A program made the position numbers and the translations under genes. Shown one piece after another: positions 60,516 to 60,833 of a stretch of DNA of 64,000 nucleotides. The notes beneath the pieces were generated by a model. The model made no database searches, was not told the DNA's origin, and saw only the letters and a list, made by a program, of their open reading frames with translations. Every line of letters begins with the position of its first letter. Position 1 is the stretch's first letter. Origin of the DNA: Escherichia coli (lineage in GTDB: Bacteria; Pseudomonadota; Gammaproteobacteria; Enterobacterales; Enterobacteriaceae); the NCBI RefSeq assembly GCF_003334355.1, contig NZ_QOWP01000001.1; one strand, 5' to 3'.

Positions 60516-60833
60516 ATATCAGTACGCTCATAAAAATCCATTTATAATTATCAACATGACACGTTGATACTTTCATCTTTTACTTATTCAAAGCCATATT
60601 TTCAATCCCCAAAAAAACCGAACCAAACGTGTAAATTATTCCGGTGCGAGTAAGAATTATGAGGAATGGCTATCAGTATTGTCATTTTCAGAAAATATTT
60701 ATCCTGCATCGGTGAGTCAGAGCTAGATCAGACTTTTGCTAAATTCGCAAAAGACTTTGCACATTTTGCTAATTTCACCGTACCGCTCTGTGACGTACTA
60801 TAGTCGGCAAACGTCTCACTTTGAGGTTAAAAA

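Follow-up and report, generated by a model that had tools for sequence, protein, structure and literature searches.

The DNA analysed here is a stretch of 64,000 nucleotides from Escherichia coli (RefSeq assembly GCF_003334355.1, contig NZ_QOWP01000001.1), referred to below as the window. The ORF list and the RefSeq annotation give the E. coli gene order qseC-ygiZ-mdaB-ygiN-parE at its end, with the following coordinates.

58788-60137, plus strand: qseC
60183-60515, minus strand: ygiZ, a DUF2645 inner membrane protein of 110 aa
60834-61415, plus strand: mdaB, an NADPH:quinone oxidoreductase of 193 aa
61446-61760, plus strand: ygiN
61808-63700, minus strand: parE

The spacer between ygiZ and mdaB extends from the ygiZ start (60515, minus strand) to the mdaB ATG (60834), and thus measures 318 bp (60516-60833). 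No feature is annotated in this interval in RefSeq K-12, and the preliminary description of a 318-bp non-coding gap was exact in its coordinates. Between 60100 and 60900, four positions distinguish the window from K-12 MG1655, none of them in the motif region.

Comparison of genomes revealed that the spacer is made up of two parts, namely, an ancestral mdaB promoter at 60730-60833 and a cassette-derived segment at 60516-60729.

60730-60833, plus strand: ancestral core mdaB promoter region, 104 bp (kept across E. coli and Enterobacteriaceae)
about 60138-60729, no strand assigned: ygiZ cassette, an insertion/deletion polymorphism reaching from the qseC stop codon to the mdaB promoter (genome comparison, GC profile)
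60516-60729, minus strand: cassette-derived part of the spacer with the ygiZ promoter region (blastn against RM9088; PMC3950696)
60651-60658, minus strand: AATTCTTA, candidate core of a BglJ-RcsB box, wwTTCykA (after the motif wording in PMC3950696)

The core region was kept in 5,426 of 5,426 complete E. coli genomes. It was also found directly 3' of qseC in 80 Enterobacteriaceae loci outside E. coli (other Escherichia, Citrobacter, Salmonella, Klebsiella, Enterobacter, Kluyvera, Leclercia, Raoultella, and others), with the same motif block located 10-20 nt after the qseC stop codon; the whole qseC-mdaB spacer elsewhere in Enterobacteriaceae is only about 105-110 bp long. In O157:H7 Sakai, a mere 'gggta' lies between qseC and the sequence starting with AGACTTTTGCTAAATT, and the spacer has 109 bp and lacks ygiZ. 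Since the motif block adjoins qseC in O157 Sakai and in the loci of 80 relatives, segment 60730-60833 is considered the ancestral mdaB promoter. The ygiZ cassette, in turn, is AT-rich (28-40% GC, compared with 52-55% in the flanks, according to the GC profile) and is missing from every non-Escherichia locus compared. The ygiZ-only allele present in the window was found in 3,329 of the 5,426 complete E. coli genomes, a longer allele composed of hcp (TssD), a hypothetical gene, and ygiZ in 1,261, and no cassette at all in 825. Alignment by blastn with RM9088 showed that 60654-60729 is shared with the hcp upstream region of the strains that possess the longer allele and that 60494-60653 is confined to the ygiZ-only allele.

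The cassette-derived part of the spacer faces ygiZ, and a promoter scan identified promoter-like sites on its minus strand. According to Salscheider et al. 2014 (PMC3950696), the ygiZ promoter is activated by BglJ-RcsB, as evidenced by lacZ fusions, 5'-RACE, and site mutagenesis, and the site involved is centered 65-68 bp upstream of the start of transcription (TSS). The candidate AATTCTTA, a motif match, is found on the minus strand at 60658-60651. The extra length of the spacer is accounted for by an inserted cassette that brings its own BglJ-RcsB-activated ygiZ promoter, and segment 60516-60729 corresponds to the promoter side of this cassette, which is activated in the opposite direction and is unrelated to mdaB. 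Awareness of this composite gap, formed by a 104-bp promoter and a cassette with three states, may be of use for the design of reporter fusions and for strain comparisons.

The length of the spacer had initially been considered a possible sign of an unannotated small RNA or small ORF. Apart from the 318 bp as such, this idea draws on a 45-aa ORF (60666-60803), the largest in the spacer, on several further ORFs of 26-35 aa, and on a K-12 transcription start mapped to 60734. Against it, both strands of 60100-60900 were without an Rfam match at an E-value of ≤1, and terminator scans detected no intrinsic terminator in the spacers of the window and of Sakai. The Shine-Dalgarno sequence of the 45-aa ORF directly abuts its ATG, and in the two closest comparators this start codon is either replaced by ATT (E. 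whittamii) or missing (RM9088). Furthermore, the ORF straddles the cassette junction, and it can therefore not exist in the 825 cassette-free genomes or in other genera. The small-ORF reading was dropped, given that the start codon is not kept and that the ORF crosses the junction. The additional ~215 bp belong to the ygiZ cassette side, and an RNA or protein gene hidden in this spacer is considered exceedingly improbable.

The motifs that had originally drawn attention to the spacer are located in its ancestral part, where the string quoted in the preliminary description was found at 60733-60778. A repeat search confirmed two 13-nt copies of ttttgctaa(a)tt, TTTTGCTAAATTC at 60734-60746 and TTTTGCTAATTTC at 60764-60776, which are identical at 12 of 13 positions and 30 bp apart. 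The same search also returned AGACTTT twice and two inverted repeats. The second motif copy falls within a forward marbox, the predicted site for MarA, SoxS, and Rob. The elements recognized in this part of the spacer are the following.

60738-60752, plus strand: site 'A', GCTAAATTCGCAAAA, a weaker marbox-like sequence (9.4 bits, 44th in the window)
60756-60775, plus strand: predicted marbox for MarA/SoxS/Rob, 20-mer TTTGCACATTTTGCTAATTT (matrix score, consensus, PMC12052159 S2)
60767-60775, plus strand: TGcTAATTT, extended -10-like element (fits K-12 start 60782)
60774-60779, plus strand: weak -35 element TTCACC, 4 of 6 (sequence, conservation)
60796-60801, plus strand: conserved -10 element TACTAT (TAnnAT in all genera)
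60808-60809, plus strand: predicted main start, conserved CA (from the -10 element and conservation of 0.99/1.00)
60823-60826, plus strand: Shine-Dalgarno sequence GAGG of mdaB (conservation 0.90-0.99)

The arrangement GCAC-N7-GCTAAT initially reported was found to be correct in its two elements, GCAC (60759-60762) and GCTAAT (60768-60773), but not in its spacing, since the gap is 5 nt and N7 holds only when counted to TAAT. These 5 nt correspond to the spacing that the marbox consensus AYnGCACnnWnnRYYAAAY requires. Segment 60756-60774 deviates from this consensus at 2 of 19 positions, and the 15-mer core GCACATTTTGCTAAT at 60759-60773 deviates at a single position from gcannwwntgnnaaa. Matches to the degenerate consensus with ≤2 mismatches are not more frequent than expected by chance over the whole window (15 compared with 16.4 expected). 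A weight-matrix scan, as had been suggested at the outset, was conducted with a matrix derived from the 32 MarA ChIP-seq sites, on chromosome or plasmid, that MarA also bound in vitro (Table 1, PMC5684230). The 15-mer at 60759-60773 scored 14.1 bits, with the median of the training sites being 13.2, and ranked second among the 127,972 window positions; in shuffled 130-nt upstream regions, the 99th percentile of the best match was lower, at 11.6 bits.

The notion that both ttttgctaa copies are equivalent marboxes could not be upheld, because the first copy scores 9.4 bits and lies in a freely varying spacer. Site A (GCTAAATTCGCAAAA) is located 21 bp upstream of the main marbox in the same orientation and features in the S2 Table of PMC12052159 as a predicted mdaB marbox with 2 mismatches; its third position is A in just 5 of 76 distinct orthologous promoters. 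Conservation was assessed with an alignment of 81 upstream regions that comprise 76 distinct promoters. The main marbox site is conserved across about 80 species, the 76 distinct promoters show no variation between genera in its GCAC and 5-nt spacer, and the distance from its G to the ATG is 75 nt in 64 of the 81 sequences. The second recognition element varies between species at 60770-60771: it is AAT, not AAA, in E. coli, and roughly half of the species have CAT, with which the score of the forward site drops to ~8 bits. In 78 of the 81 sequences, the best marbox match in the 130-nt upstream region was at one of three fixed positions of the block described below, corresponding by species to the main forward site in 35 cases, to the upstream forward site in 22, and to a reverse site within the block in 21.

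Further support for this assignment comes from the literature on mdaB. The S2 Table of a 2025 genome-wide prediction of marboxes (PMC12052159) contains the identical 15-mer, assigned to mdaB. Membership of MdaB in the mar regulon is cited with reference to Barbosa & Levy and Martin & Rosner 2002; mdaB upregulation is described in another paper as occurring 'typically' via MarR/MarA, and mdaB is listed in print among the genes that MarA activates. In Salmonella, the ramA knockout showed a 3.2-fold decrease of mdaB and a 2.3-fold decrease of ygiN. The initial view of mdaB as a redox-stress gene with a plausible marbox is consistent with these reports, which place the gene in the mar/sox/rob regulon, dependent on RamA in Salmonella. 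As to genome-wide data sets, mdaB is not among the 33 MarA ChIP-seq peaks of ETEC H10407 (PMC5684230), and the authors of that study stated that the MarA sites captured by ChIP-seq were limited to those of high affinity and that the majority of known marboxes have a preference for SoxS or Rob. It is also absent from the EcoCyc list of MarA targets with high-quality evidence and from the supplement of the ChIP-seq paper on MarA, SoxS, Rob, and RamA in Salmonella. Taken together, the strong score, the right orientation, the conservation, and the published regulon membership support the proposed marbox at GCAC...GCTAAT upstream of mdaB. This marbox is already known, in that the site has been predicted in print and the gene is accepted as a member of the mar/sox/rob (and RamA) regulon. 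Little is therefore new about the marbox itself, and the practical gain consists in its placement relative to the conserved -10 element.

This -10 element, TACTAT at 60796-60801, conforms to TAnnAT in all genera, with major-allele frequencies of 1.00 (T), 0.94 (A), 0.99 (A), and 0.94 (T) at the four defined positions and TAAAAT, TAGAAT, and TATCAT as variants. It points to a downstream mdaB start near 60808/9. The weak -35 element, which reads TTCACC or TTTACC across the 81 upstream regions, is located just 3' of the 15-mer core (60759-60773), and its first two bases (60774-60775) overlap the 3' end of the 20-mer marbox. No plus-strand promoter with at least 9 of 12 consensus matches was detected in the core region, as would be anticipated if the promoter depends on an activator. 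The forward-oriented marbox is centered at 60766, which corresponds to -42/-43 relative to the predicted start at 60808/9. By definition, class II sites are forward marboxes that overlap the -35 element and are centered between -36 and -55, and validated examples are found at -41 (rfaY) and -39 (fumC).

The nearest mapped K-12 starts at mdaB correspond to window positions 60782 and 60734 (PMC12052159 S2), as converted by means of three independent marbox centers; 60782 is TSS 3170500+ (U00096.2). With respect to 60782, the marbox is centered at -16. For the mdaB locus, there is no entry in the available text of the Cappable-seq supplement, and primer extension failed to map the mdaB start in Salmonella. 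The start at 60782 gives weight to an alternative view of the repeated motif, according to which the ttttgctaa(a)tt copies are not transcription factor sites but extended -10 elements, TGnTAAATT and TGnTAATTT, that belong to tandem constitutive promoters, since this start is exactly 7 nt after TAATTT (60770-60775), with TG at -15/-14. The corresponding element, TGcTAATTT, lies inside the marbox, but position 60771, the second of its hexamer, where an A is essential, is C in 38 of the 76 orthologues. The first copy, moreover, occupies the 7-nt spacer that varies between genera and has no listed start downstream. The other listed start, 60734, is upstream of the first copy and fits the K-12 sequence TAAGAT, which is altered to CTAGAT in the window, and the conserved -10 element of the locus is TACTAT at 60796-60801. 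Tandem constitutive promoters are thus a rather unlikely explanation of the repeat. A sigma-54 promoter (TGGCAC-N5-TTGCW) was likewise considered and rejected, because TTGCAC-ATT-TTGC lacks the GG and the distance from G59 to G68 is 9 nt instead of 11.

We consider it probable that the motif-bearing part of the spacer is the promoter of the mdaB-ygiN operon, equipped with a class II marbox, and that the other 215 bp are the ygiZ cassette. In the mechanism proposed, a MarA-family activator (MarA, SoxS, or Rob in E. coli and RamA elsewhere) would bind the marbox at 60756-60775 as a single monomer and recruit or stabilize RNA polymerase at the -10 element TACTAT (60796-60801), with transcription starting near 60808/9. 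Such class II activation would provide more quinone reductase under redox-cycling or xenobiotic stress. As the marbox also overlaps the upstream, Escherichia-type extended -10 element (TGcTAATTT) that fits the mapped start at 60782, a promoter switch is to be expected, and activator binding may shift initiation from 60782 to the downstream start, as at lpxC P1/P2. The class II geometry of the mdaB marbox, with a P1/P2 switch of this kind, appears likely from the spacing of the elements; the downstream start, direct activator binding, and promoter switching at mdaB are inferred.

The conservation of the region extends beyond the marbox and involves two further elements.

60747-60769, plus strand: nearly invariant block of 23 nt, GCAAAAGACTTTGCACATTTTGC (alignment of 81 sequences)
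60733-60753, no strand assigned: dyad CTTTTGC-N7-GCAAAAG (inverted repeat, conservation)

The invariant block begins 9 nt upstream of the marbox. At every position of the block, the major-allele frequency is at least 0.93 in the 81 sequences, and the block is essentially invariant in the 76 promoters; in the same genomes, the average at fourfold-degenerate sites of mdaB is 0.72, and the coding sequence has no comparable run longer than 11 nt. No second copy of the block turned up in the 64-kb window, and a literal search for its sequence in open-access full texts retrieved an irrelevant primer match alone. In the dyad, the core TTGC-N7-GCAA is conserved and the 7-nt spacer is variable, with the center at 60743, about -65 from the predicted TSS. 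The sequence A(T/C)T(A/T)TTGC at 60732-60739 is also conserved and is parted from the block by this freely varying spacer, whose two positions adjoining the arms differ in a complementary manner (T/G preferred at 60740 and A/C at 60746). The block and the upstream dyad are more conserved than the marbox alone explains. Part of the block conservation may be due to overlapping marbox-like sites, since the best matrix matches are spread over three positions of the block.

In ygiZ-free genomes, the stop codon of qseC precedes the dyad by 10-20 nt, and a further reading is that the dyad forms the RNA hairpin of a qseBC terminator. This would agree with the finding that preB and mdaB are not cotranscribed in Salmonella and with a slight excess of pairing at 60741/60745 (30 compared with 20.1 expected). 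However, the median folding energy of the dyad is just -3.4 kcal/mol, no U-tract directly follows the stem, no terminator was detected in Sakai by scanning, and the arms are invariant in sequence and in most genera include an A-A mismatch, unlike the compensatory pattern that a stem would show. With a hairpin this weak and no U-tract, a terminator role is unlikely; it was dropped in view of these features and of the lack of compensatory changes, and we regard it as very improbable.

A different alternative is that the block is mainly the operator of another regulator, with binding of MarA-family proteins being secondary or absent. One candidate would be a dimeric or tetrameric protein reading the TTGC-N7-GCAA dyad at ~-65 and a second site near -45, in the manner of LysR-type regulators, and another would be a Rob-like AraC/GyrI protein such as STM3175. 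The conservation of the block and the dyad arms reaches beyond the marbox and exceeds that of any mdaB coding stretch, and TGC-N7-GCA (60737-60749) fits the T-N11-A motif, with its center at 60743 again ~-65 from the predicted start. A T-N11-A dyad near -65 accompanied by a promoter-proximal site, as found here, is the LysR-type layout, and the conserved sequence continues to 60775. The rarity of A at the third position of site A (5/76) and the complementarity of 60740 and 60746 are as expected for a symmetric site. In addition, other regulators are reported for mdaB genes elsewhere, namely, the LysR-type CrgA in Neisseria and the MarR-type RrpA in Campylobacter. Against this alternative, all genomes examined were devoid of an adjacent, divergent regulator gene and of a LysR-type gene next to mdaB, the neighbors being qseC, or ygiZ and hcp, and in most genera only 5 of the 8 dyad positions are symmetric. 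Marbox-like sites on either strand, moreover, already span most of the block. The LysR-type regulator YhaJ, which controls quinone-related genes, was set aside because none of the YhaJ papers found mentions mdaB.

The case for STM3175 derives from Salmonella, where PreA/QseB overexpression increased mdaB expression 7- to 32-fold and that of this neighboring AraC-type gene 605-fold. STM3175 is encoded ~3 kb upstream in most Enterobacteriaceae, is QseB/PreA-induced, and has lost its DNA-binding domain in E. coli. Its architecture is Rob-like, and the E. coli protein YgiV (160 aa) keeps the ligand-binding domain only; all E. coli genomes nevertheless retain an intact block, which argues against a regulator of this type. 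Boxes of the QseB/PmrA type are direct repeats with the consensus YTTAAK-N5-YTTAAK, and no match to it with ≤2 mismatches was found in 60730-60833, the best local match being at 58030-58046 in the ygiW-qseB spacer. A direct QseB/PmrA box at mdaB was accordingly rejected, and the PreA/QseB effect on mdaB is probably indirect because the core promoter lacks such a box. Control of the block chiefly by another regulator is doubtful on balance, though less so than the hairpin or the tandem promoters. Similarly tentative is the proposal that the element of ~44 bp at 60732-60775 is a composite operator, in which the marbox would be combined with a second factor that reads the dyad and the GCAAAAGAC extension. 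This factor may be a regulator that senses quinones or xenobiotics and has LysR-type geometry, or it may be STM3175, the Rob-like AraC/GyrI protein. If true, a composite operator would explain both the PreA-dependent induction of mdaB in Salmonella and the exceptional conservation.

Several links emerge between the mdaB locus, read as a class II marbox promoter next to the ygiZ cassette, and known systems. The ygiZ-facing 215 bp resemble the AT-rich, H-NS-type promoters that are activated by BglJ-RcsB, of which ygiZ is an example; these differ from the mdaB promoter in strand and gene and have no bearing on the ttttgctaa motifs. LysR-type promoters, with T-N11-A near -65 and an activation site near -35, are similar to the mdaB dyad in layout only; CrgA of Neisseria meningitidis is reported as a LysR-type regulator of an mdaB gene, and no LysR-type gene adjoins mdaB in E. 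coli. The marboxes of the mar promoter (ccacgttttgctaaa) and of ybjC-nfsA (gcattaattgctaaa), both bound by MarA in vivo (Table 1, PMC5684230), share the TTTTGCTAA/TTGCTAAA second half with the mdaB site; unlike the latter, which ends in AAT, the mar marbox is in the class I configuration, that is, reverse and upstream. In comparison with described marboxes, the mdaB site is distinguished by the invariant extension of 9 nt and the upstream dyad. There is also a likeness to the class II promoters of fumC, rfaY (P1), lpxL (P1), and lpxC (P2), in which, as at mdaB, a forward, asymmetric marbox of 20 bp runs into a weak -35 element. The mdaB site differs from this set in that its main start is a predicted one, that it was not recovered by MarA ChIP-seq, and that its second recognition element is AAT or CAT and not AAA. 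Its center is at about -42 from the predicted start, as compared with -39 for fumC and -41 for rfaY, and the enzyme encoded downstream likewise serves in redox or xenobiotic defense. At lpxC, a two-promoter layout has been demonstrated experimentally, with the marbox over the upstream promoter P1 and in class II position for the downstream P2, and at mdaB the marbox equally overlaps core elements of the upstream start.

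The gap between qseC and mdaB occurs in three allelic states among 5,426 complete E. coli genomes: ygiZ alone (3,329 genomes), hcp (TssD) followed by a gene for a 236-aa hypothetical protein and ygiZ (1,261 genomes), and no cassette at all (825 genomes). The positions of these alleles in the window and in two further mdaB loci, L083 and L002, are as follows.

qseC-mdaB gap alleles: window 60138-60729; L083 2584-4115; L002 1539-1647

The gene order, Hcp followed by an unknown protein and a small membrane protein, points to ygiZ (DUF2645) as an orphan immunity gene from a type VI secretion effector cassette.

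The cassette also carries two inverted repeats. The first, at window 60146-60177, consists of 10-bp arms (TCTATGAGAG ... CTCTCATAGA) with a loop of 12 nt, followed by TTTT, and it lies in cassette DNA between the convergent genes qseC and ygiZ. It resembles a bidirectional terminator, but in a terminator scan it remained below the scan thresholds. The second, at window 60546-60572, has 13-nt arms (AATTATCAACATG / CACGTTGATACTT) that are 85% complementary and separated by 1 nt; it precedes the ygiZ start codon by 30-57 nt, lies within a segment found only in the ygiZ-only allele, and may serve as an operator or form a leader hairpin.

At window 60723-60724, K-12 differs from other strains: its sequence TAAGAT resembles a -10 hexamer and is consistent with the K-12 transcription start mapped to window 60734. 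Since this hexamer reads CTAGAT in the window and CAAGAT in other strains, this upstream start may be confined to K-12. A further K-12 start, U00096.2 3171102+ (S2 Table of PMC12052159), corresponds to window ~61384, which falls within the 3' end of mdaB, and precedes the ygiN ATG by 62 nt; therefore, ygiN may have its own internal promoter. Two predicted marboxes of low quality are located just downstream of this start.

Many mdaB 5' leaders outside Escherichia, in Citrobacter and relatives, contain an inverted repeat, CCTCAAAC...TTGAGG, through which an upstream anti-SD sequence could base-pair with the Shine-Dalgarno sequence. The E. coli leader has GGCAAACG...TTGAGG instead, without this pairing.

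mdaB leader inverted repeat: ~1470-1495 in the compared mdaB loci L007-L037 and other loci

Upstream of this region, the ygiW-qseB intergenic region contains CTTAACAACTTCTTAAG (window 58030-58046), a near-perfect direct repeat of the PmrA/QseB type that is also palindromic and is probably a QseB autoregulatory box. Next to ygiV, window 56155-56848 (minus strand) holds two ORFs of 131 and 98 aa, whose sizes and order are as expected for the antitoxin and toxin genes mqsA and mqsR. The E. coli ygiV product itself (window 57053-57535, minus strand; 160 aa) comprises only a GyrI-like domain, whereas its orthologue in Salmonella, STM3175 (288 aa), also carries an AraC-type DNA-binding domain at the N-terminus, resulting in a Rob-like architecture. 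As ygiV lacks this domain, a neighbouring Rob-like regulator has been lost in E. coli.
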